This document shows positions 6,200-16,933 of a DNA stretch of 64,000 nucleotides, piece by piece. A program made the position numbers and the translations under genes. Source of the stretch: Candidatus Paralachnospira caecorum (GTDB lineage: Bacteria; Bacillota; Clostridia; Lachnospirales; Lachnospiraceae); NCBI GenBank assembly GCA_904379015.1, contig CAJFHG010000012.1, positions 40 to 64,039 on the forward strand, written 5' to 3'. Numbering within the stretch: the first letter of the stretch is position 1; every line of letters begins with the position of its first letter. The notes below the pieces were generated by a model, which saw nothing but the letters and a program-made list of their open reading frames with translations, was not told the origin of the DNA and ran no database searches.

Positions 6200-6280
6200 G
6201 CCTGCCGTTTGCTTTGGCGGCGTTGCCGTTTGCTCCGATGGCATTACCGTTTACTTCGATGGTATCACCGTTTGTCCCGG
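6200..6280. repeat. Imperfect 21-bp tandem repeat x4
   Basis: The core CCGTTT recurs at 6205, 6226, 6247 and 6268 (exact 21-bp period). Confidence 0.7.
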
Positions 6281-9200
6281 CGGCGGGCCTTTCGCTCAGC
6301 AATTTCCGCCGCGGCCAGGATTCCCAGCGAAATAACGGCGGAAATCCCGCTGAAGAAGACAAGGGGAAGAAACTGCGTTCTGTCGCCTGTTTCTGGCGCC
6401 GTCAGTGAATCCGCGGAATCATCCGCTGCGGATGCTCCGGATTCTTCCGGATCTGTTTCGGCGGCGCTGCCCGGATCGTTTTCCGGAGCAGCCCCGGACG
6501 GTTCGCCGGGGGCCGCTGCGGAATTTTCGGAGCTTTCTTCTGGTGCGGTTCCGGATTCTTCCGGAGGCTGGCCGCCGCCTGACGGCGTTGTGGGAGTTTC
6601 CGGCCCGGAGGGGGTTTCCGGAGTCTCCGGTTCCGAGGGGGCCGTGTAACGGTTGCGGAAAACGGGAGCGCTGCCGCCTTCGTATTCCACAGACGCCAGA
6701 AGGTGCCCGCTCTGATCGTCCTTTACGGTGATGGCGATCCGATAGACATTCTGGTCGTAGGTGATCCCTTCTGCGCTGCCGGATTCTTCGGAAACGGTGT
6801 AGTAATACGTACCGGGCGCGTCGAAGGTGAGTGAAGGAAAGGGAATCGTTCCGCTTTCTGTGTTGACGGCCGCTGCCGCTTCCCGACCCTGTTCATCTCT
6901 TAACAGGAAGGAGAATTCACCGGCCTGCAGGCTGCGTCCCGTCAGCTCTTTTCCGGCGGTCAGGTACACGGTGGCCGGAGCGGGGCTGTAGGAGTTGCGG
7001 AATACCAGATCCCGCGCCGTCAGGTCGGCTGAGGCCTGGAGCGCGCCGCCCTGGTCGCTGACAGAAACGGTAATTTCATAGACCGTTTGATCGTACTGAT
7101 ATCCGGCCGTGCCCAGATCTTTTTCGTAGAGCCGGTACACATAAGTTCCGGCCTGACTGTACTGAATGGTCCCGAAGGAAAAGCTGCCCGCCATGTTCGC
7201 GGTTTCGGCAGAGGCGCCTGTCCCGCCCGGCATCGGCATGTCGCCTGTTGTGGAGGAGACTGCCTCCAGAACAAAGCGGAACTGTCCGTCCTTCATGGTT
7301 CCTCCGGTCAGTTCCTTGGTGCCGGAGATCACGTAGGAGGCCATGGAAGGGTGATACTGGTTTTCAAAGGCGATTGCTGCCGCCGGAGCGCCGTCCTTCG
7401 TATAAGAAACATCTGCCTGAAGCTGTCCGCCGGCATCTGTGACCTGAACCGTTATGACAAACACGCTGCTGTCGATGAGAATGCCGCCGGCGGAGGTGTT
7501 GTTTTCCCGCACCGTATACCGGTAGGTTCCGGCTTCTGTGTAGGTGACGGGGCCGTTCAGAAGCGGGATTCTGCCGTCCGCCGCATTCGTAAGGGCCTCG
7601 TTGGCTGCGACCGGGTCGGAGGCGGGATTACTCTGGTCAGGAATCAGGCTGAAGCTGAATTCTCCGCCCTGCATGGTGTAGCTGCTGCCGCTCTGGGCGG
7701 TCACAGTTTTCCGGGCCTCCAGGCCCGTTCCGAAGACGGAAACGGGAGCAGGCGTGTAGGCGTTGGTGAATTCCACCGCGGCGTCCTGCGTCGTGATGAT
7801 GCCGGAGGCGCTGCCGGCTCCCGGCGTTACAGCGCCGTTCACGGAAACGGAGCTGAGGGTGTAGCCCGGCGGCAGATTGATTTCTGTGACCGTATACCGG
7901 CTGTGGGCGGCGATATCCGGTATGGCAATGGTCTCTCCGCCACTCAGGGTAAATTCAACGGAGCCGGAACTGCTGAAGGAGAGGGTTTCCGGGCTTGTTT
8001 CCTGTCCGTTTTTCCGGACGGCGCTGACAGACTGACCTGCTTTGGAAGGCAGAGAAAGGGAAAAGGTGAAGGTCTGGTCCGGCGCAGTCAGCCCGCCGGC
8101 CGTTTCTGTCTTTTTCCCAATGGTCAGAGAATGGCTCAGGGCGTCCGCCTGAAGGAGCCCGTTATTCCCCAGATAGACCCGGAAGGCGCCGTTTCCGGCA
8201 TAGGTGGGATAATAACAGGACTGCGCGGTGCCGGTCGTGTTGGAGGTCTTGAGTTTTTCAAAGTCCCTTAAATTGCCCAGTCTCGGCGCGCCTGCCTGAA
8301 GCTCCAGCTGTCCGCCGGGACCGGTGGGAGCCGCGGCAGGCGTTCTGTCTGTCTCGTAAAAGATGGAACCCTTGCGGGACACGACTGCCGTTTCAGAAGC
8401 GGTGCCGTCATAAAACCGGATCTGGAAATAGTAGACCGTGTCCGGATCCAGCGCCCCGTCAGCCGGATGATTCAGGTGTTCGTCCAGGTACAGAGGCGTA
8501 TTTTCCTGGACATAGTAAAAGGGATTGGTGTGTGCCGGCGTGAAGGTCACAAAGGCGTCTCCCACCGTCGCTCCGCCGTCCTGTGATCCGCCGTATCCGG
8601 GGTCTGTATCCCCGCTGTAGCGGCCGCTGTAAAAATTGACCCGGCTGTCGGAGACGTTCGCGGCAAGATAGGACTCAGACAGCGCGGCGGTATTGGCCGT
8701 GCCGTCGCTGTTCAGAACCTGGTCCTGTGTTCCGACGCTGTAAATGACCCGGATCGGATAGGCTTCGCCGGCCGTGTGGTCTGCCGCGGTGCCGTCCGCG
8801 TTCAGCGTGATCTCATTGACCCGCATGGGGATCGCGGCTGCCGGAATTTTCACGGTGAGTTCCTGGGTTTTCTCCCGGGTCAGAGGATCGGTGACAGTTT
8901 TGACGGCGATTTCGATCAGCCCCGCGTCGATCTTGCCGTATACGGGACTGTCCACCTGTCCCTGGAAGGTATAAGAGACCGTGTCGCCGGAGGTCCGGAC
9001 ATCTTTCTGGGTAAATTCTGTTCCTCCGTAGATCAGTTCCCGGATATCTTTGATCTCCATGTATGCTCCGATATAATCGGTATAAGTGATGTATCCGTCG
9101 TGGAAGGCGTCGTTTCCGGTGACTTCAGTGGGCACCTGGGCCGCGGCCACGATTTCCGAGACAATTTCTGTGAATATGGTGTTCAGTTCATCAGAATCCT

Positions 9201-10656
9201 CCGCCGAATAATAGGCGTCCGGGTAATAGAGGGAGTCCGGATTGCGTTCTGTGTCGGCGATCAGGACCTGATAGTCCCGCTCATCTCCGTTGGAACCCAG
9301 CTTTCCCCGGACTGTGGGGGTATGGCCGCCGCTGTAGTCCTCCCATGCCCGGGCGATCTGCCGGACGGCCTCATGGCTGCTTGCCTGGGCCGTATCCAGG
9401 TGAGCTTCGGGATCCAGTACGAGTCCGGCCATTTCCGCCATGCCGTCGGTCTGGAGGGCGGTGCTGAATCCGATGGTATAGACGCTGGCAGCGTCCTGGC
9501 TGTCAGGAGTCCCGTAATAGTGGGCGGTGATCTCGTTTTTCATATAGGCGGCCGTCAGAAGGGCCATAAAGCCGTTGGCGCTGTGGGGATTGGAATTGTC
9601 CCCGCCGCCGATGGCTTCGCTGGAGACGCCCTCCCACCAGGAACCGCTGCTGGTGTCGTCCCCCCGCACGTCCGTGTCGTGGGTGATGGTGCCGTGCTGT
9701 CTGGCGCTTCCGCTGTCTGTCCAGCTGGCATCCGCGGCGGAGGCGAAGGTGGTGGGCGCGCCGTCTGACATCAGCACCACATTGGGAAGCCGGGTCACGG
9801 TGCCGCCCGCGGCGGTCCTGAATTCTGTGTCCTTTGCTTCGGACAGAATGCGCATGCCTTCGTAGAGTCCGGCCTGGATATTGGTTCCGCCGGCAGTCGA
9901 GACAGTCTTCTGATTGATGCTGCTGGTGATCTGCGCCTTTCCGTCGTCCTGTCCGGTCGTGCCGGAGAACTGGCTCATGGTGAGATAGGTTCCCGAGGTT
10001 CTGACATGCCCGGGAATGTCCTTTATTTCGGTCAGTTCCAGCAGCGTGTCAGAACTGCCGTTGAATACGGCAATGGCGATCCGGTTATGGGCGCTGCTTT
10101 TTGCCAGAACGTCGATGGAGCTGTTCAGGGCTTTTACCATGGCCTGGATCCGGGAATCGCTTCCGTCCTCCAGGGAAACTTTCTGAGAATCAACGCCCCA
10201 GCACATGCTTGCCGAGAGGTCGAGGATGAATACCACGTCCGCCGGCTGTCCGGAGATGACCTTCGTGGAAGTCGCGAAGGCGGAATAGGTGACCAGGAAA
10301 TCTTCGTTTTCCAGCTTCTGGATCTGAACAGAGTCTCCCGCGTCGCCGGTAAAGGTCAGATCTTCCGTGCTGACAGACTTGTCTGTCCAGACACGGCCTG
10401 AATAACGGGTGGAATCGGTATCTCCCAGCCCGGTTTTGTAAGAGCTGCGTGTATCGCTGTCGGCGGCGGCTGTCAGTCCGGCCGCCTGCGCCAGCAGGGG
10501 GGATGCTTCCCGGGGAAACGCCGTGAACGCCAGTGCTGCGGCCAGAAAAGCCGCCGCTGCGGCGCGGAGGGTTTTCCCGCAGAAAGACGAAGCTTTGCGG
10601 TGACGCAGAGCTTTTTTCGATTTCTGGTTTACAAACCTGTTTATAAAAACGTTCAT
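6265..10656 (-). CDS. Large sortase-anchored pilin/adhesin: vWA domain, CnaB/Spy0128(FctA)-like repeats, APETG sorting signal
   Basis: N-terminal signal peptide; MIDAS DVVFILDLSASM; three K(E/T)(L/V)T...F.F.L...GTY.Y...E repeats; Pro/Glu-rich linker; APETG plus TM helix plus basic tail RKARRRDKR. Confidence 0.85.
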   Translation of the reverse strand: MNVFINRFVNQKSKKALRHRKASSFCGKTLRAAAAAFLAAALAFTAFPREASPLLAQAAGLTAAADSDTRSSYKTGLGDTDSTRYSGRVWTDKSVSTEDLTFTGDAGDSVQIQKLENEDFLVTYSAFATSTKVISGQPADVVFILDLSASMCWGVDSQKVSLEDGSDSRIQAMVKALNSSIDVLAKSSAHNRIAIAVFNGSSDTLLELTEIKDIPGHVRTSGTYLTMSQFSGTTGQDDGKAQITSSINQKTVSTAGGTNIQAGLYEGMRILSEAKDTEFRTAAGGTVTRLPNVVLMSDGAPTTFASAADASWTDSGSARQHGTITHDTDVRGDDTSSGSWWEGVSSEAIGGGDNSNPHSANGFMALLTAAYMKNEITAHYYGTPDSQDAASVYTIGFSTALQTDGMAEMAGLVLDPEAHLDTAQASSHEAVRQIARAWEDYSGGHTPTVRGKLGSNGDERDYQVLIADTERNPDSLYYPDAYYSAEDSDELNTIFTEIVSEIVAAAQVPTEVTGNDAFHDGYITYTDYIGAYMEIKDIRELIYGGTEFTQKDVRTSGDTVSYTFQGQVDSPVYGKIDAGLIEIAVKTVTDPLTREKTQELTVKIPAAAIPMRVNEITLNADGTAADHTAGEAYPIRVIYSVGTQDQVLNSDGTANTAALSESYLAANVSDSRVNFYSGRYSGDTDPGYGGSQDGGATVGDAFVTFTPAHTNPFYYVQENTPLYLDEHLNHPADGALDPDTVYYFQIRFYDGTASETAVVSRKGSIFYETDRTPAAAPTGPGGQLELQAGAPRLGNLRDFEKLKTSNTTGTAQSCYYPTYAGNGAFRVYLGNNGLLQADALSHSLTIGKKTETAGGLTAPDQTFTFSLSLPSKAGQSVSAVRKNGQETSPETLSFSSSGSVEFTLSGGETIAIPDIAAHSRYTVTEINLPPGYTLSSVSVNGAVTPGAGSASGIITTQDAAVEFTNAYTPAPVSVFGTGLEARKTVTAQSGSSYTMQGGEFSFSLIPDQSNPASDPVAANEALTNAADGRIPLLNGPVTYTEAGTYRYTVRENNTSAGGILIDSSVFVITVQVTDAGGQLQADVSYTKDGAPAAAIAFENQYHPSMASYVISGTKELTGGTMKDGQFRFVLEAVSSTTGDMPMPGGTGASAETANMAGSFSFGTIQYSQAGTYVYRLYEKDLGTAGYQYDQTVYEITVSVSDQGGALQASADLTARDLVFRNSYSPAPATVYLTAGKELTGRSLQAGEFSFLLRDEQGREAAAAVNTESGTIPFPSLTFDAPGTYYYTVSEESGSAEGITYDQNVYRIAITVKDDQSGHLLASVEYEGGSAPVFRNRYTAPSEPETPETPSGPETPTTPSGGGQPPEESGTAPEESSENSAAAPGEPSGAAPENDPGSAAETDPEESGASAADDSADSLTAPETGDRTQFLPLVFFSGISAVISLGILAAAEIAERKARRRDKR

Positions 10657-11049
10657 AAAATCGCCGTCTCCTTTGCTTAGATTGTATGTTGGCCGGACAG
10701 GACCGGAAAATCATCTGGCTGTCCGGAAGTCTGCCTCATTATACTATGGATCGTTCTGCTTCTCCATGATCACTTTCTGCCAGCGCTCCCAGCGGCTGCC
10801 AGTCCTGCCGGCGCCCGGAACAGGCGGCGGGGAAAAGGGGTGCGGCCTGGAGGAAGCCTGAGCGGCAGAAATATGAGAAGAGAAAAAATAAGAATGAATC
10901 AGGAGGGGAAGGGGAAAGAAAGCGGGGATAAAAGCACGCGGGATGAGAGAACAGAACGAATAAGCCGGCGCGATATTATGGGAAAAATAATTAAAAAAGC
11001 GCTTTTTCCCGTAAATTTCCAGATATTTCCATAATATGGAAGGTCGAGG

Positions 11050-11079
11050 TTGACAGAACCATACGGGGGGGGGTAAAAT
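11050..11079 (+). promoter_or_regulatory. sigma70-type promoter with a G9 homopolymer in an 18-bp spacer
   Basis: TTGACA (11050-55), then GAACCATAC and GGGGGGGGG (11065-73), then TAAAAT (11074-79); about 110 bp upstream of the first PqqD gene. Confidence 0.75.
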
Positions 11080-11189
11080 GGGGTGAGACATTTGAGCCGG
11101 CGAAGTCCCGCAGGGGGCCGGTGAAGCTGTCTGAAGAGGGAAACTGTTAAATTTATCCCGGAAAATGTTGTAGAGACACAGTGATAAAA

Positions 11190-11948
11190 ATGGAAAAAGA
11201 GCAGAAGCAGAAACGGCGGCAGGAGCAGCAGATCATGCGGCAGGAGAGCCATGCGGCGGAAGAACAGATGGAACAGCACAGGTCCCGGAGCCAGGAGCCG
11301 GAAAAGGAACCGTATGTACCGGTGAGGGCCGGTGTTCTGAGCCAGGAAGAGGCGGCACGCGTAAAAGAAGTTCTGGCTGCTGAGGAAACTGCCGGGGAGG
11401 CTGCCGGAAACATTGCCGGCAAAGCAGATATCCAAAAAGAGAACGTCAAAAAAGCAAACACGGAAAAAGAAAACATCGAAAAAGAATATGCCGAAGAAGA
11501 AACTATCAGAAACGATATGGTAAAAGAAGATGCGGGGACGGGAGACGCGAAGGCGAAGGCCGCGGAGGCCGGTGCAGACCGGAAAATCCGGTATAAGCTG
11601 TCGGAAGGGCTGAAAATGCGCAAGGTGGCAGGACAGACCATGATTGTTCCCATCGGTTCGGCTGTCAGGACCATCGGCCAGACAGCGGTGCTCAATCCGG
11701 AGGCGGCGTTTCTGGTCAGCCAGATGAAAGAATGGTTCACGCCTGAGGAAGTTGTCAGGAAGGGACTGGAGGTGTATGACGCCGATGAGGATAAGCTCCG
11801 CTCCGATGTCATGGAGCTGGTGGAGATACTTTTCCGTTCAGGAATGCTGATTGAGGATACAGAGGATGGACGAGGTAAGAGAGGACGGGCGTCAGGAATT
11901 GTCCGGGTTCCCGCAGGGAAGGATTTACCCGGTCCAGGCAGCCTTTGA
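11190..11948 (+). CDS. PqqD-family RiPP recognition element with a long acidic/charged N-terminal extension (module 1)
   Basis: The C-terminal half YKLSEGLKMRKVAGQTMIVPIG...LNPEAAFLV...DVMELVEILFRSGML has the PqqD fold; the first ~130 aa are E/K/A-rich low complexity. Confidence 0.8.
   Translation: MEKEQKQKRRQEQQIMRQESHAAEEQMEQHRSRSQEPEKEPYVPVRAGVLSQEEAARVKEVLAAEETAGEAAGNIAGKADIQKENVKKANTEKENIEKEYAEEETIRNDMVKEDAGTGDAKAKAAEAGADRKIRYKLSEGLKMRKVAGQTMIVPIGSAVRTIGQTAVLNPEAAFLVSQMKEWFTPEEVVRKGLEVYDADEDKLRSDVMELVEILFRSGMLIEDTEDGRGKRGRASGIVRVPAGKDLPGPGSL
11433..11537 (+). repeat. Degenerate 15-bp coding repeat in the PqqD extension
   Basis: CAAAAAGAGAACGTC/AAAAAAGCAAACACG/GAAAAAGAAAACATC/GAAAAAGAATATGCC/GAAGAAGAAACTATC encodes QKENV KKANT EKENI EKEYA EEETI. 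Confidence 0.6.
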
Positions 11949-13035
11949 GCTGACGCCGAGATGCAATTTCAGATGTAAGATGTGCTACGTCAGGCTGGAC
12001 GGCAGCGCGGTCGGGCGCTATGGCAGGGAGCTGAGCGCGGAGGAATGGATCCGGATGGGCGAGGCGGCAGCGGAGGCGGGAACGCTGAGGCTGACGATTA
12101 CCGGCGGAGAACCGCTGGTCAGAGAGGATTTTCCTCAGATTTATCAGGAACTGACGGAAATGGGTTTTCTGATCACGCTTCAGACCAATCTGTCGCTGCT
12201 GGACGGCAGGGTAATGGATCTGATCGCGGACCGGCCTCCGGTTATGATCAAGTCGACACTGTACGGTGCTTCAGAAGAGACATATGAGCGTGTGTGCGGT
12301 GTAAAGAACGGCCTGGCCAGGGTCCGGCGCGGCATTGAAAATGTGCGGCAGGCAGGGATTCCGCTGACGCTGGTGTCCACGATCATAAAGGATAATCAGC
12401 CGGAGCTGGACGCCATTCACCGTCTGGCAGCGGAGTACGGTTATCCCCTGCAGCATACCCATAATGTGCTTGACAGCCGGAGAAATGAAAATGGAGACGC
12501 CGCGTCAAAGCTGAGGATCGAGTTTGGCAGCCTGTGTCCTGAGGAAAAGGCAAAGGTGGATCTGAAGATCCATAAACCCCAGGGGAATCCGCTGGAAATC
12601 TGCGGGAATTACCGCTTCGGCGGATACTGGATCTTGTGGGATGGCCAGATGAGCCTCTGCGCCCATATGAAAATGGAGAAGCGGTATGAGCCGCTGAGAG
12701 AGGCCGGGAAAGCCGCCGAGAAGACAGAAAACAGCGGACAGAATATCAACAAACAGGGTATCAGCAGACCGGATGTCAGCAGTTTTTGGACATCTGGAGA
12801 GTCAGAAGGGCAGGAAGCCGGCGGGAATGAAATCGAGCGCTGCTTTTACAGAATGAGAAAGGATCTGGAAGAACAGTATCGGAAAAGCGGCTGCGGAGAA
12901 TGTCAATATGGTCAATACTGTACGGCGTGTCCGGCAGTGTTATATACAAGAAAGATCAGTGTCGGGACAGAGCAGTGCAGGGCGCTGGCAAAAGAGCGAG
13001 TACAGGAAAAAAGAGATAGAGATCGGAAAAGATAG
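11866..13035 (+). CDS. Radical SAM/SPASM peptide maturase (module 1)
   Basis: ELTPRCNFRCKMCY (CxxxCxxC), ITGGEP, and SPASM cysteines C...WDGQMSLC...CGECQYGQYCTACP...C. Confidence 0.9.
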   Translation: MDEVREDGRQELSGFPQGRIYPVQAAFELTPRCNFRCKMCYVRLDGSAVGRYGRELSAEEWIRMGEAAAEAGTLRLTITGGEPLVREDFPQIYQELTEMGFLITLQTNLSLLDGRVMDLIADRPPVMIKSTLYGASEETYERVCGVKNGLARVRRGIENVRQAGIPLTLVSTIIKDNQPELDAIHRLAAEYGYPLQHTHNVLDSRRNENGDAASKLRIEFGSLCPEEKAKVDLKIHKPQGNPLEICGNYRFGGYWILWDGQMSLCAHMKMEKRYEPLREAGKAAEKTENSGQNINKQGISRPDVSSFWTSGESEGQEAGGNEIERCFYRMRKDLEEQYRKSGCGECQYGQYCTACPAVLYTRKISVGTEQCRALAKERVQEKRDRDRKR

Positions 13036-13114
13036 ATAAGAGAAGCAATAAGAAAAACAGGTAAAAAGAAAAAGTAAGATAAAGTCAGAGCGTGATGCTC
13101 GAGAGGAGGAAAAT

Positions 13115-13435
13115 ATGCCTACAGTAAGTGGAATTAGAAGAAAGCCTGCGTATGGAGGAGCAGAAATTTCTTTATTTAGTGTAAATAATTCTGTTAGTCA
13201 GTCAGGTACGTTTGGTTCAGCAGAAGGTATGGTGAGTTATCACTGGTCATTATCATGGGATGAGTCTGGCTTTTCAGGTGTCGTAGGTGATTGGTATGTA
13301 GGCCCTCCAAATTATAACGTAACAAAAGCAGGAGACTTGGAAGGCCTTTCTGATTTGCATTATGGAGCCATTGCTGAATATCGAGTTAATGCGAACCATA
13401 CTAATTGTACAACTTATGAACAAACAACACCATAG
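13115..13435 (+). CDS. Putative RiPP precursor peptide 1 (106 aa, G/S/aromatic-rich)
   Basis: Strong RBS (GAGGAGGA) before ATG; lies between rSAM and kinase; shares motifs with the peptide in module 2. Confidence 0.65.
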   Translation: MPTVSGIRRKPAYGGAEISLFSVNNSVSQSGTFGSAEGMVSYHWSLSWDESGFSGVVGDWYVGPPNYNVTKAGDLEGLSDLHYGAIAEYRVNANHTNCTTYEQTTP

Positions 13436-14165
13436 TAATCTTGCGAGCTTTTGTTTTCTGATTTGTTTGACAGTACCACTGGATTCTCGATGGAGACAAT
13501 TTAATTATATAACATCGGATAATAATGATTTGATATTTACTATTGAGGAATATTCGGACCAAGGATTGATCATAAGGGATGACAATGCTGTAGTTGCAAA
13601 GTGTAAGAGCAATGGGATAGAAAATGTACATATATTTGACGATGTAGTTTATCGCCTTTGCATGGAGGTCCTCATTACCAAACCCGTACTTCATTTTCAT
13701 AGTTCGTTTGTTATGTACATTGACCAGGCAATTCTTTTCACTGGCCCGTCCGGTATTGGAAAAACAACTCAGGCCGAGTTATGGCGGGATTACGAAGATG
13801 CGATTATTGTCAATGGTGACGTCACATTGATTCGGAAAATAGATGATGTGTGGCGTGCCTTTGGTGCTCCGATCCATGGATCCAGTCCGTACTGTGAGAA
13901 TATGGATGCTCCTATAGCAGCCATTATTGTTCTGAAACAGGCAGAAGAGAACCAATTGATTCGGCTGGATGCTTTTACGGCGCTTGGTGAATGTTTTCCG
14001 GAAATTTACAGGCCGGAAATGTCGGATGAAACCTACGAGATTTTATTGGATACGGTAGATGCATTATTTTCAGAGATTCCTGTATATCAACTGAGCTGCC
14101 GTCCGGACAGAGAGTCTGTTGAATTGGTAAAACAAACATTATTTGATCAGAATCCGGAGCTGTAA
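13416..14165 (+). CDS. HPr-kinase-like P-loop protein (module 1); exact start uncertain
   Basis: FHSS...ILFTGPSGIGKTTQAELW...VNGD...GAPIHGSS...YQLSCRPD. Confidence 0.8.
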   Translation: MNKQHHSNLASFCFLICLTVPLDSRWRQFNYITSDNNDLIFTIEEYSDQGLIIRDDNAVVAKCKSNGIENVHIFDDVVYRLCMEVLITKPVLHFHSSFVMYIDQAILFTGPSGIGKTTQAELWRDYEDAIIVNGDVTLIRKIDDVWRAFGAPIHGSSPYCENMDAPIAAIIVLKQAEENQLIRLDAFTALGECFPEIYRPEMSDETYEILLDTVDALFSEIPVYQLSCRPDRESVELVKQTLFDQNPEL

Positions 14166-14368: not shown

Positions 14369-14397
14369 TTGACAAAAAATGGAAGTAAAGATATAGT
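14369..14397 (+). promoter_or_regulatory. sigma70-type promoter of module 2
   Basis: TTGACA (14369-74), 17-bp spacer, TATAGT (14392-97). Confidence 0.7.
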
Positions 14398-14467: not shown

Positions 14468-14794
14468 ATGCGGCTGAAAGACAATCTGGTTTTGAGAAAA
14501 GTCGCAGGGCAGTTTGTCATTGTGCCTGTGGGAAAGCGGGTACAGGAAATTCCTAACACAGTGTATATTTCTTCTTCGGCAGCGTTTCTTTGGGATTACA
14601 TGAAGGAAAATGAATTTACCGAAGAAATTTTAACAGATAAAATCATGGAGCATTATACTGGTGTGACCAGAGAAACGGTTCAGGAGGATATCCGGCAGTT
14701 CCTGGATGTGCTCAGAAAAAATCGAATTCTGGAAAAAGAGCCGGGAGAGAGTGAACCGGAAGGTGGTACAGTGAGGGTGGTTATCCGAAAATGA
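14468..14794 (+). CDS. PqqD-family RiPP recognition element (module 2)
   Basis: MRLKDNLVLRKVAGQFVIVPVG...SAAFLWDYM...EDIRQFLDVLRKNRILE; GGAGG RBS; ATGA overlap with the rSAM gene. Confidence 0.85.
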   Translation: MRLKDNLVLRKVAGQFVIVPVGKRVQEIPNTVYISSSAAFLWDYMKENEFTEEILTDKIMEHYTGVTRETVQEDIRQFLDVLRKNRILEKEPGESEPEGGTVRVVIRK

Positions 14795-15867
14795 TGCCGG
14801 GCAGCTTTGACAGAAAAGACTGCAGCGGGATTCCTGAAGGAAATGAATTTTACAGGGTCATGGCGGAGGAGGCCAGAAAACATGCGATTCCGCTGTCTGG
14901 GACTTTTGAATTGACGCCGCGGTGCAATTTTAATTGTAAAATGTGTTATGTTCATCTGGCAGCAGACAGAATTCCGCTGTTTGGAAAAGAACTGACTGCG
15001 GCTGAATGGATCCGTGTGGCTGAGGAAGCCAGAGACGCGGGAATGCTGCAGCTTTGCATTACCGGAGGAGAACCGATTCTTCATCCGGAGTTTGAAACTA
15101 TATACAGAGAAATTTCCCAGATGGGATTTTTTATTACGCTGCAGACAAACGCATCTGTGTTATCAGATAATATTTTGTGTCTCCTGGAGGAATACCCGCC
15201 CCAGGATGCTAAAATAACCATATATGGATCTGATAATGAAATTTACAGGGCTGTGTGCGGTGTCGAAAACGGTTTTACAAGGACAGATCAGGGCATCCGA
15301 GACCTTCTTCAGCTGGAAATTCCAGTTATGTCGGTTACGACAGTGATCAAACAAAATAAAGATGACCTGGAAAATATATATCAATATACACAGAAACTAA
15401 AAATTCCGTGGATATATACATCGGGCGTAAAGCCTTCTGTTCGAGGGGCCGAAACAAATGCCAGAGAAGTGGCGATAGATGAAGAATCGGCGACAGATTA
15501 CAGAGAAGACGTAAGACAGATGATACAAAGACCTGCGATGAAGGATGAAAAGAAACCCTGTGAATATTGCAGAGGATATCGCATGAGTTTTTGGGTCAGC
15601 TGGGATGGGAATATGCGGTTCTGTTCGTTTATGAATGAGCCGGATATTTCTGTGATGGAGCATACATTTTCAGAAGCCTGGAAACGACTGGTTGAATATG
15701 AAGAAAGGCTTCAGTGGCCGGTTTCATGCAGAACGTGTGAAATCAGACATATATGCAGACGCTGCATTGGTATGTTGGCTGCGTTCAGCGGAAGCGCTGA
15801 CAGAGTAGATGAGGATTACTGTAAATATATACAGGCATATGTTGAACAAGAAAGAAGGAGAAAATAA
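14791..15867 (+). CDS. Radical SAM/SPASM peptide maturase (module 2)
   Basis: FELTPRCNFNCKMCY, ITGGEP, and SPASM C..C...WDGNMRFC...CRTCEIRHICRRC...C. Confidence 0.9.
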   Translation: MMPGSFDRKDCSGIPEGNEFYRVMAEEARKHAIPLSGTFELTPRCNFNCKMCYVHLAADRIPLFGKELTAAEWIRVAEEARDAGMLQLCITGGEPILHPEFETIYREISQMGFFITLQTNASVLSDNILCLLEEYPPQDAKITIYGSDNEIYRAVCGVENGFTRTDQGIRDLLQLEIPVMSVTTVIKQNKDDLENIYQYTQKLKIPWIYTSGVKPSVRGAETNAREVAIDEESATDYREDVRQMIQRPAMKDEKKPCEYCRGYRMSFWVSWDGNMRFCSFMNEPDISVMEHTFSEAWKRLVEYEERLQWPVSCRTCEIRHICRRCIGMLAAFSGSADRVDEDYCKYIQAYVEQERRRK

Positions 15868-15869
15868 AA

Positions 15870-16160
15870 ATGGAAGAAGGATATGTAAAGGTAAAAGCGG
15901 CAGCAGTGAGTCTTATGTCCGCAAATGTAAATGGATCTGATTTAGAAAATGGACAAACTACAGGAACATTGGGGATACATTGGGAAGTGTATGCTGATGG
16001 TAGAGGAGGAATTTCAGGGATTGATTGGCCGGATGAAAGTCTTTATGTATCTGGAAATCCTGGACGTACTAATCAGAATATCACAAACTATATTAACGAT
16101 TTGGTGTGGACATCTGAATGGGAGCAGTTTAGAGCGAAATATGGAAGTTGTGCTGTGTAA
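15870..16160 (+). CDS. Putative RiPP precursor peptide 2 (96 aa)
   Basis: Starts 2 bp after the rSAM stop with an AAGGAG RBS; its TAA overlaps the kinase ATG (TAATG); motif similarity to peptide 1. Confidence 0.7.
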   Translation: MEEGYVKVKAAAVSLMSANVNGSDLENGQTTGTLGIHWEVYADGRGGISGIDWPDESLYVSGNPGRTNQNITNYINDLVWTSEWEQFRAKYGSCAV

Positions 16161-16933
16161 TGTATCAATACAAGTTGATCGATGAATATTTATATATAGA
16201 TCATGAAGTGCCTTTTTTAGAAAAATATAATTCTTCTAGTAACATCGATATAGCAACTGATATATGTATCGAATTAATGGTGAATCCATTCATCTGTTAT
16301 GGTATCAATGTTATTACATGTGCAAAAGATGAACTTATTTTAAAGAATCGTGAAGGGATTCTGATGGTAAATAAACTTTATGGAAACGGCAGATTATATG
16401 CGGACAAAGAAGAGGATGCCTCTCCTTTGATTATGTTGTTTTTATATTCTCATCTCATTCCCAAGCAAACGCTTCTTTTCCACAGCTCTCTTGTTGATTT
16501 TTCGGGCTCCGGAATTATGTTTCTTGGACCCTCTGGTATAGGGAAGACAACCCAGGCGGAGCTTTGGAACAAATATCTTGGTGCGGATATTCTGAACGGC
16601 GATATGGTTTTTACCCGGAAGAACGAGGATGGATTTTATGGCTATGGTTCGCCATGGCATGGATCATCGCCATATTACAAGAATGCCAAGGTAAAACTGA
16701 AGGCGCTGGTTGTTCTGGAGCAGGCGGGGGAAAACACATTAAAGCGGCTGGAAGGGTTTGATGTTTTGCAGGGCATTATGGAACAGGTATTTCTTCCCCA
16801 CTGGTATCCGGAAGCTATGGATACTTGTCTGAATACGCTGGATCTGCTGCTTGAAGAGGTTCCGGTATATCATCTTGCCTGCAGGCCGGATGAAGATGCA
16901 GTTTTATTGTTGAAACAAGAACTTGGATTATAA
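16160..16933 (+). CDS. HPr-kinase-like P-loop protein (module 2)
   Basis: FHSS...IMFLGPSGIGKTTQAELW...LNGD...GSPWHGSS...YHLACRPD; clear paralog of 13416-14165. Confidence 0.85.
   Translation: MYQYKLIDEYLYIDHEVPFLEKYNSSSNIDIATDICIELMVNPFICYGINVITCAKDELILKNREGILMVNKLYGNGRLYADKEEDASPLIMLFLYSHLIPKQTLLFHSSLVDFSGSGIMFLGPSGIGKTTQAELWNKYLGADILNGDMVFTRKNEDGFYGYGSPWHGSSPYYKNAKVKLKALVVLEQAGENTLKRLEGFDVLQGIMEQVFLPHWYPEAMDTCLNTLDLLLEEVPVYHLACRPDEDAVLLLKQELGL

Follow-up and report, generated by a model that had tools for sequence, protein, structure and literature searches.

The window, by which is meant the whole stretch of 64,000 nucleotides that was analysed, carries on its minus strand the gene for a large adhesin and, divergent from it on the plus strand, two tandem copies of what looks like a peptide-modification cassette. 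Between the adhesin gene and the first of these cassettes lies a promoter-like site in which half of the spacer is a run of nine Gs. The features concerned are as follows:

6265-10656, minus strand: adhesin gene, 1463 aa, VWA plus isopeptide pilin (FctA/Spy0128-type repeats); PF12892 FctA at E = 4e-67, VWA_2, TIGR03786
10766-10738, minus strand: adhesin promoter-like site, from the consensus scan
10994-11007, no strand assigned: palindrome AAAAAGCGCTTTTT, not conserved between haplotypes
11050-11055, plus strand: -35 hexamer TTGACA, perfect consensus
11056-11073, plus strand: promoter spacer GAACCATACGGGGGGGGG, 18 nt here and 16-20 nt in other strains
11065-11073, plus strand: G9 homopolymer abutting the -10 box; hypermutable, G7-G11 across assemblies
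11074-11079, plus strand: -10 hexamer TAAAAT, 5/6 match
11086-11180, plus strand: predicted transcription start at ~11086 and 95-nt leader, placed from the position of the -10 box
11181-11948, plus strand: PqqD-like (RRE) protein, 255 aa, first gene of cassette 1; PF05402 at E = 2.2e-6, domain residues 154-223
11899-13035, plus strand: radical-SAM enzyme of cassette 1, 378 aa in public calls; PF04055 at E = 3.7e-24
13115-13435, plus strand: small 106-aa ORF of cassette 1, candidate substrate protein; a gene call in several public contigs
13530-14165, plus strand: ScmC/HPr-kinase-like protein of cassette 1; PF27840 ScmC on the called 211-aa product
14369-14397, plus strand: tract-free promoter of cassette 2, TTGACA-17-TATAGT, 11/12 score, conserved in all haplotypes
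14468-16933, plus strand: cassette 2, a second copy of the same gene set, in tandem to cassette 1

A PqqD-family RRE protein, a radical-SAM enzyme and an ScmC/HprK-like protein are thus encoded on consecutive genes, twice in tandem (PF05402, PF04055 and PF27840), and are followed on the 3' side of the twin cassettes by genes for a 320-aa protein, an ABC exporter and a VanZ-family protein. The ScmC-like copy of cassette 2 shows weak HprK C-terminal matches, and the 106-aa ORF of cassette 1 (13115-13435) has no Pfam family. The curated SCM equivalogs for the ScmE/ScmF radical SAM/SPASM proteins, TIGR04250 and TIGR04251, score 56-73 bits against cut-offs of 400. Judged by these domain matches, the cassette resembles the SynChlorMet-type PqqD / radical-SAM / ScmC sets in kind and is outside those families. 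The 255-aa PqqD-like protein is called in exactly this form on 38 public contigs; an apparent "237-aa allele" of its gene proved to be a different start call and is no strain marker. In this protein the RRE is preceded by a 150-residue N-terminal extension of low complexity, rich in Lys, Glu and Ala (11181-11640), which is unusual for a PqqD-family chaperone.

The first-pass annotation had read positions 11050-11079 as a TTGACA and a TAAAAT box separated by an 18-nt spacer with nine consecutive Gs, and both direct reading of the sequence and a consensus scan bear this out. The spacer consists of GAACCATAC followed by the G9 run. With 11 of 12 consensus positions, this is the sole promoter-like site that the scan found on the plus strand within 10000-12500, and it stands ~100 nt upstream of the first gene of cassette 1. 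Other roles for the region around the tract were considered. No Rfam family matches within 10600-11300, and the 5' stem-loop predicted in the leader is no better than in shuffled sequence (z = -1.0); a riboswitch or leader RNA was rejected on these two grounds. Neither strand carries a conserved ORF or a Pfam family across the tract, and the ORFs that do span it are broken by an indel of ~100 bp in other haplotypes, so a coding-frame switch was rejected for both strands. An invertible element had been suspected because two contigs begin at 11036, the centre of TTCCATAATATGGAA; it too was rejected, since a search for inverted repeats gave short, weak ones only. In all, three short-read contigs from different samples start within 30 nt of the tract, two at 11036 and one at ~11085. 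These starts may be assembly-graph breaks caused by length heterogeneity within a sample, or may reflect poor coverage of the G run.

The tract was read, contig by contig, in public assemblies of the same species, which were found by exact-protein look-up of the neighbouring genes. This yielded ~25 assemblies; the lengths are assembly consensus lengths, the samples come largely from few studies and probably from co-housed birds, so that independent populations are fewer than assemblies, and short reads make homopolymers of 10-11 more difficult to call. JGI metagenome contigs were scanned for exact matches to the promoter, whatever the length of its tract, and gave none; BLAST with the intergenic region as query found no homologue in 60 related species, which makes the locus species-specific. 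The ~25 assemblies fall into four haplotype groups, among which the tract is G7, G8, G9, G10 or G11:

Haplotype W, G9: the window, ERZ1478584, ERZ1478595, ERZ1478606, ERZ4883047, ERZ27234807 and ERR3414581 (7 sample sets)
Haplotype W, G7: seven assemblies of one study (ERZ21549404 to ERZ21549454) and Logan run ERR11860598
Haplotype A: G8 in ERZ21829456 (coverage 36); G9 in SRR13089951
Haplotype B1: G10 in ERZ21824288 (coverage 42); G9 in ERR9526596; G8 in ERR16044031
Haplotype B2: G10 in ERZ21824281; G9 in ERZ21819508, ERZ21824275 and ERR9525675; G8 in ERZ21824269; G11 in ERZ21827650
Mixed B haplotype: G9 in ERR9525898

The TTGACA and TAAAAT hexamers are invariant in all ~25 assemblies, and the differences in spacer length among strains are confined to the G run. 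Over 3.3 kb, haplotype W has the same flanks as the window; in haplotypes A and B the first protein is ~97% identical to that of the window and there is a deletion of ~100 bp upstream. The commonest allele is G9 (18 nt) and not G8. Within each haplotype there are 0-3 SNPs per 2-3 kb, and in each group the tract takes two to four lengths, so that the four groups together call for no fewer than seven independent changes of length. Set against 0-3 SNPs, these changes mark the G tract, as far as consensus sequences can tell, as much more mutable than any other site of the locus. Assemblies of high coverage (k-mer coverage 21-55) give G8-G11, and the length differences are thus not an effect of low coverage. 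It had at one time seemed odd for slippage that alleles differed by 2 nt only (G7 and G9 here, G8 and G10 at the C10 locus described below), a point dropped when further haplotypes supplied the full series G7-G11. The first-pass annotation had proposed a search for length variants in related genomes, naming an invariant tract as the result that would speak against it; G7-G11 were found among near-identical strains, and invariance did not occur. One further allele, in Logan contig ERR9525688, is an interrupted 9-mer, GGTGGAGGG, in which two substitutions break up the homopolymer at unchanged length; this may be a naturally locked allele with an 18-nt spacer or else an error of low coverage or assembly.

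What such changes of length should do to the promoter can be gauged from the genome itself. When the sites with TTGACA and a -10 box matching at least 5/6 were counted by spacer length, there were 4 at 15 nt, 13 at 16 nt, 111 at 17 nt, 22 at 18 nt, 5 at 19 nt and 5 at 20 nt, over a background of ~4-10, and the 17-nt peak recurs under two other definitions of the motif pair. From this peak, the main sigma factor of the organism has a sharp optimum at 17 nt and tolerates 16 and 18 nt, with 19-20 nt not visibly used. The earlier assumption that 17 nt is best and 19 nt off agrees with this census (111 sites at 17 nt; 19-20 nt at background). Transferred to the tract, these counts suggest that G8 is optimal, G7 and G9 are reduced, and G10 and G11 are probably off; by the same census and by general promoter biology, G9, the commonest state, would be a low setting.

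The tract also belongs to a small class. In the genome counted (2.59 Mb in 55 contigs, 52.6% G+C), G/C runs number 1833 at length 5, 152 at length 6, 7 at length 7, 4 at length 8, 2 at length 9 and 1 at length 10, the G9 of the window being one of only three runs of at least 9. Strong purging up to length 7, followed by a tail that persists, is what one usually sees where contingency tracts are retained. Among the 14 G/C runs of at least 7, four lie no more than 10 nt downstream of a perfect TTGACA, in a spacer with a recognisable -10 box at its end, and in all four the G is on the strand of transcription, never C. Given 1380 TTGACA sites and 5.2 million strand positions, ~0.04 such coincidences are expected by chance, against the 4 observed. 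Apart from the tract of the window, the runs that bear on this are:

C10:83631-83640: G10 tract, TTGACA-A-G10-TAATG-TATTAT, with an A/T-rich upstream element; a strong promoter
C8:76823-76829: G7 tract with a 16-nt spacer to TATGAT, before a 385-aa uncharacterised ORF
C4:48815-48821: G7 tract after TTGACA, before the gene for an SLH-type secreted protein
C23:29630-29637: a fifth, G8 tract after the weaker box TTGAAT, before the gene for an unknown 197-aa protein
C3:17370-17378: non-promoter G9 run just after the terminator of a PRK-domain gene, beside a truncated phage-integrase gene

The C10 tract precedes the gene of a Peripla_BP_6 ABC substrate-binding lipoprotein, which is divergent from a GntR regulator gene; the 385-aa ORF behind the C8 tract we provisionally take to be an Ldh_2-type dehydrogenase. 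At C10 this genome and three long-read assemblies have G10, whereas two further samples have G8; at C23 the tract is G8 or G7 between strains, and at C4 it is G7 in nine of nine samples. Variation at C10 and C23 and constancy at C4 fit a mutability that rises with tract length. The non-promoter run on C3 is likewise G9 or G8 between strains, from which it follows that length variation alone demonstrates mutability and not function or selection; it is the placement of the tracts, rather than their variation, that argues for function. A mismatch-repair defect was rejected as the cause of slippage, MutS and MutL being present and intact.

The same layout is met sporadically in relatives. Of the 60 related genomes, 13 carry TTGACA-N(0-10)-G(7 or more), at ~18 loci altogether; the poly-C equivalent is found at 7 loci, with similarly low numbers for reversed-pattern controls. 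The promoters concerned stand at unrelated genes (example loci G007:C3, G055:C134, G026:C38 and G025:C6): TTGACA-N8-G9-TAAAAT before the gene for a secreted (signal-peptide) protein, TTGACA-N7-G10-TACAAT, and, upstream of the gene for another secreted protein, a spacer with a G13 run. In one relative TTGACAAAAAAATAC[C/T]-G(7 or more) is present five times, and the G9 copy that was examined precedes an adenylating-enzyme gene. At the loci of radical-SAM homologues in other genera there is no comparable promoter tract.

How far the influence of the tract might extend can be judged from the promoters on either side of it. The first-pass annotation had placed the promoter in an intergenic region shared with the adhesin gene, and the adhesin gene is indeed divergent; the tract lies ~300 nt from the likely promoter of the adhesin and ~410 nt from its start codon, and because of the former distance the two genes probably do not share the switch. 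The palindrome AAAAAGCGCTTTTT, to which attention had also been drawn, is present in the window at 10994-11007 and becomes AAAAAGAGGTTTTT in haplotypes A and B, with the upstream flank deleted; not being conserved in other haplotypes, it is no essential partner of a switch. Within the intergenic region between adhesin and cassette, a purine-rich stretch of ~100 bp at ~10891-10992 is deleted in two other haplotypes, and the same two lose, besides the palindrome, half of a 12-nt inverted repeat, ATATTATGGGAA / TTTCCATAATAT. The adhesin gene itself appears as 2-4 ORFs in hifiasm- and Flye-style contigs and is intact in the short-read assembly of the same study; the splits are probably indel errors of the long reads.

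On the other side, the tract-free promoter of cassette 2 sits in the 300-nt gap before that cassette, together with a good ribosome-binding site, and the twin cassettes are, from this arrangement, probably separate transcription units. Because cassette 2 has a promoter of its own, the putative switch would most likely act most directly on cassette 1 only (11181-14165). No convincing terminator was found between cassettes 1 and 2, and read-through into the second is possible for that reason. The earlier view of the tract as a switch for the RiPP module as a whole accordingly narrows to the first cassette, which the promoter directly serves; the second has its own conserved promoter at 14369-14397.

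The explanation that we favour, and consider fairly likely, is phase variation through a poly-G promoter spacer, working as a random dimmer or on/off switch. The G run would be a hypermutable simple-sequence tract within the spacer of a sigma-A (sigma-70-type) promoter, at which slipped-strand mispairing in replication would add or remove Gs. Each change would shift the -35/-10 distance within the range of 16-20 nt and so alter the use of the promoter by RNA polymerase, in a manner heritable but reversible. Output would be highest with G8 (17 nt), reduced with G7 and G9 (16 and 18 nt) and little or none with G10-G11 (19-20 nt), and the unit switched would be cassette 1. Two marks of homopolymer-type phase variation are found at the locus, namely an uninterrupted run of a length that slips (~7-8 nt or more) and recurrent change of length between constant flanks. 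The site is probably a real, functional poly-G phase-variable promoter; we infer that 11050-11079 is active, that its output tracks spacer length, and that cells of one population switch rapidly and in both directions.

Of the other readings, the one that deserves most attention, and that we nevertheless think unlikely, is a neutral mutational hotspot, at which the G run slips and the expression of the cassette is independent of it, the promoter lying elsewhere or spacers of 16-20 nt all being tolerated; the polymorphism would then be drift. The variable runs on C3, in a non-promoter position, and on C23, in a weak promoter, speak for this reading, as does a modal allele whose 18-nt spacer is suboptimal. 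It does not account for the fact that long G/C runs are purged (152 at length 6, 7 at length 7), yet four of the 14 survivors directly follow TTGACA, nor for the recurrence of the same layout at unrelated genes in relatives. With a sharp 17-nt optimum, moreover, a range of 16-20 nt cannot be neutral for a sigma-A promoter, and the consensus scan of 10000-12500 shows no other plus-strand promoter-like site upstream of the operon of cassette 1 from which it might be expressed instead.

Differences in length could also matter in another way, if the G run were itself a promoter or operator element, a G-rich spacer that sets melting or the site of a regulator, with length tuning that property and not sigma spacing. 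The bias of promoter tracts toward G on the non-template strand, which holds without exception here and as 18 to 7 for G versus C in relatives, is in keeping with such an element, as is the direct contact of the run with the -10 box in several cases. That contact is not general: the tract adjoins the -35 box at C10, C8 and C4 and the -10 box at 11065-11073. Neither a motif shared by the flanks nor a dedicated regulator was apparent, and the range of lengths matches what spacing alone explains; we regard this reading as improbable. Least probable of all, and very much so, is that homopolymer miscalls in sequencing or assembly created the length differences. Homopolymers are error-prone, GGTGGAGGG in ERR9525688 may be an error, and the long-read assemblies carry other indels at the locus (T5/T6 at ~11003 and the fragmented adhesin gene). 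Against this, the contigs of the G7 study, in SPAdes, Flye, hifiasm and Canu styles and thus from four assemblers of short- and long-read type, all agree on G7 at this site, and the long-read assemblies of that same study still give the full G10 at C10; high-coverage SPAdes contigs give G8, G9, G10 and G11, and the G7 tract of C4 is invariant in 9 samples.

Phase variation by a homopolymer in a promoter spacer is textbook knowledge for a few pathogens (Neisseria, Treponema, Bordetella and the mycoplasmas). In Neisseria meningitidis, porA has a poly-G and opc and fetA a poly-C tract in the spacer, and strain differences of 1-4 nt lead to graded or on/off transcription. The likeness to these genes lies in a sigma-70-type promoter whose -35 and -10 boxes enclose an uninterrupted G/C homopolymer. 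The differences are that the present host, a strict anaerobe among the Gram-positive commensals of the gut, has intact MutS and MutL, and that the gene controlled encodes an outer-membrane antigen there, whereas here it would be a cytoplasmic RiPP-like peptide-modification cassette. In the hifA/hifB genes of Haemophilus influenzae, the number of repeats reportedly (van Ham and colleagues, in 1993, cited in PMC11868660) sets a -35/-10 distance of 14, 16 or 18 nt and thereby switches transcription. This classic spacer-length switch resembles the present case in lying within a divergent intergenic region, and differs in being a TA dinucleotide repeat in two overlapping divergent promoters, where here there is a mononucleotide run in one promoter.

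In Treponema pallidum, the tpr genes (tprE/G/J and tprL) and tp0126 are reported to have a promoter poly-G of ~8-12 whose length varies between and within strains and modulates transcription (PMC7864442). A promoter-region poly-G of strain-variable length is common to both; the tpr tract stands at or upstream of the promoter of an outer-membrane protein gene of a spirochaete, whereas the present run takes up the 3' half of its spacer and borders directly on the -10 box. The nearest documented case in the Firmicutes is that of Streptococcus pyogenes M28, in which a polymorphic intergenic homopolymer between the genes for the Spy1336/R28 adhesin and Spy1337 is reported to affect both divergent genes and virulence (PMC7098570). 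There, too, an intergenic homopolymer lies beside an adhesin gene; that run is poly-T and acts on both genes, in contrast to a poly-G which here most likely serves the plus-strand operon only.

Searches of a literature that excludes most subscription journals turned up no example, in Lachnospiraceae or gut Clostridia, of a switch that works through a repeat in a promoter spacer, and no RiPP-like cassette under the control of a repeat; since most subscription journals are outside its range, such absence is weak evidence. Invertible promoters have until now been the main explanation given for phase variation in gut commensal Clostridia. The mechanism proposed is of a known kind; what is new, as far as the literature searched goes, is the group of the host and a peptide-modification cassette as the target.

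The population data show a tract that is hypervariable in nature and part of a genome-wide class, and that stands before an uncharacterised peptide-modification cassette and not before a classic surface antigen. A broader reading, which we put forward tentatively as conceivable and somewhat short of probable, is that this species and sporadic other Lachnospiraceae keep a small "phasome" of sigma-A promoters with strand-biased poly-G spacers, providing stochastic, heritable dosing of a modified peptide. Its members here would be, with the same reserve, the peptide-modification cassette, the amino-acid ABC binding lipoprotein, the SLH-type surface protein and the Ldh_2 dehydrogenase, and the modified peptide product is possibly surface-linked or secreted. 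If this is true, it would mean repeat-based bet-hedging in gut commensal Clostridia and a rare example of a phase-variable RiPP-like pathway. If the effect on expression is true, the natural G7-G11 alleles would be ready-made "off", "low" and "high" strains for studying the function of the cassette product; comparisons of gene content based on MAGs would overlook such differences, and in strain-level metagenomics of commensals the length of a homopolymer should be recorded as a regulatory state.
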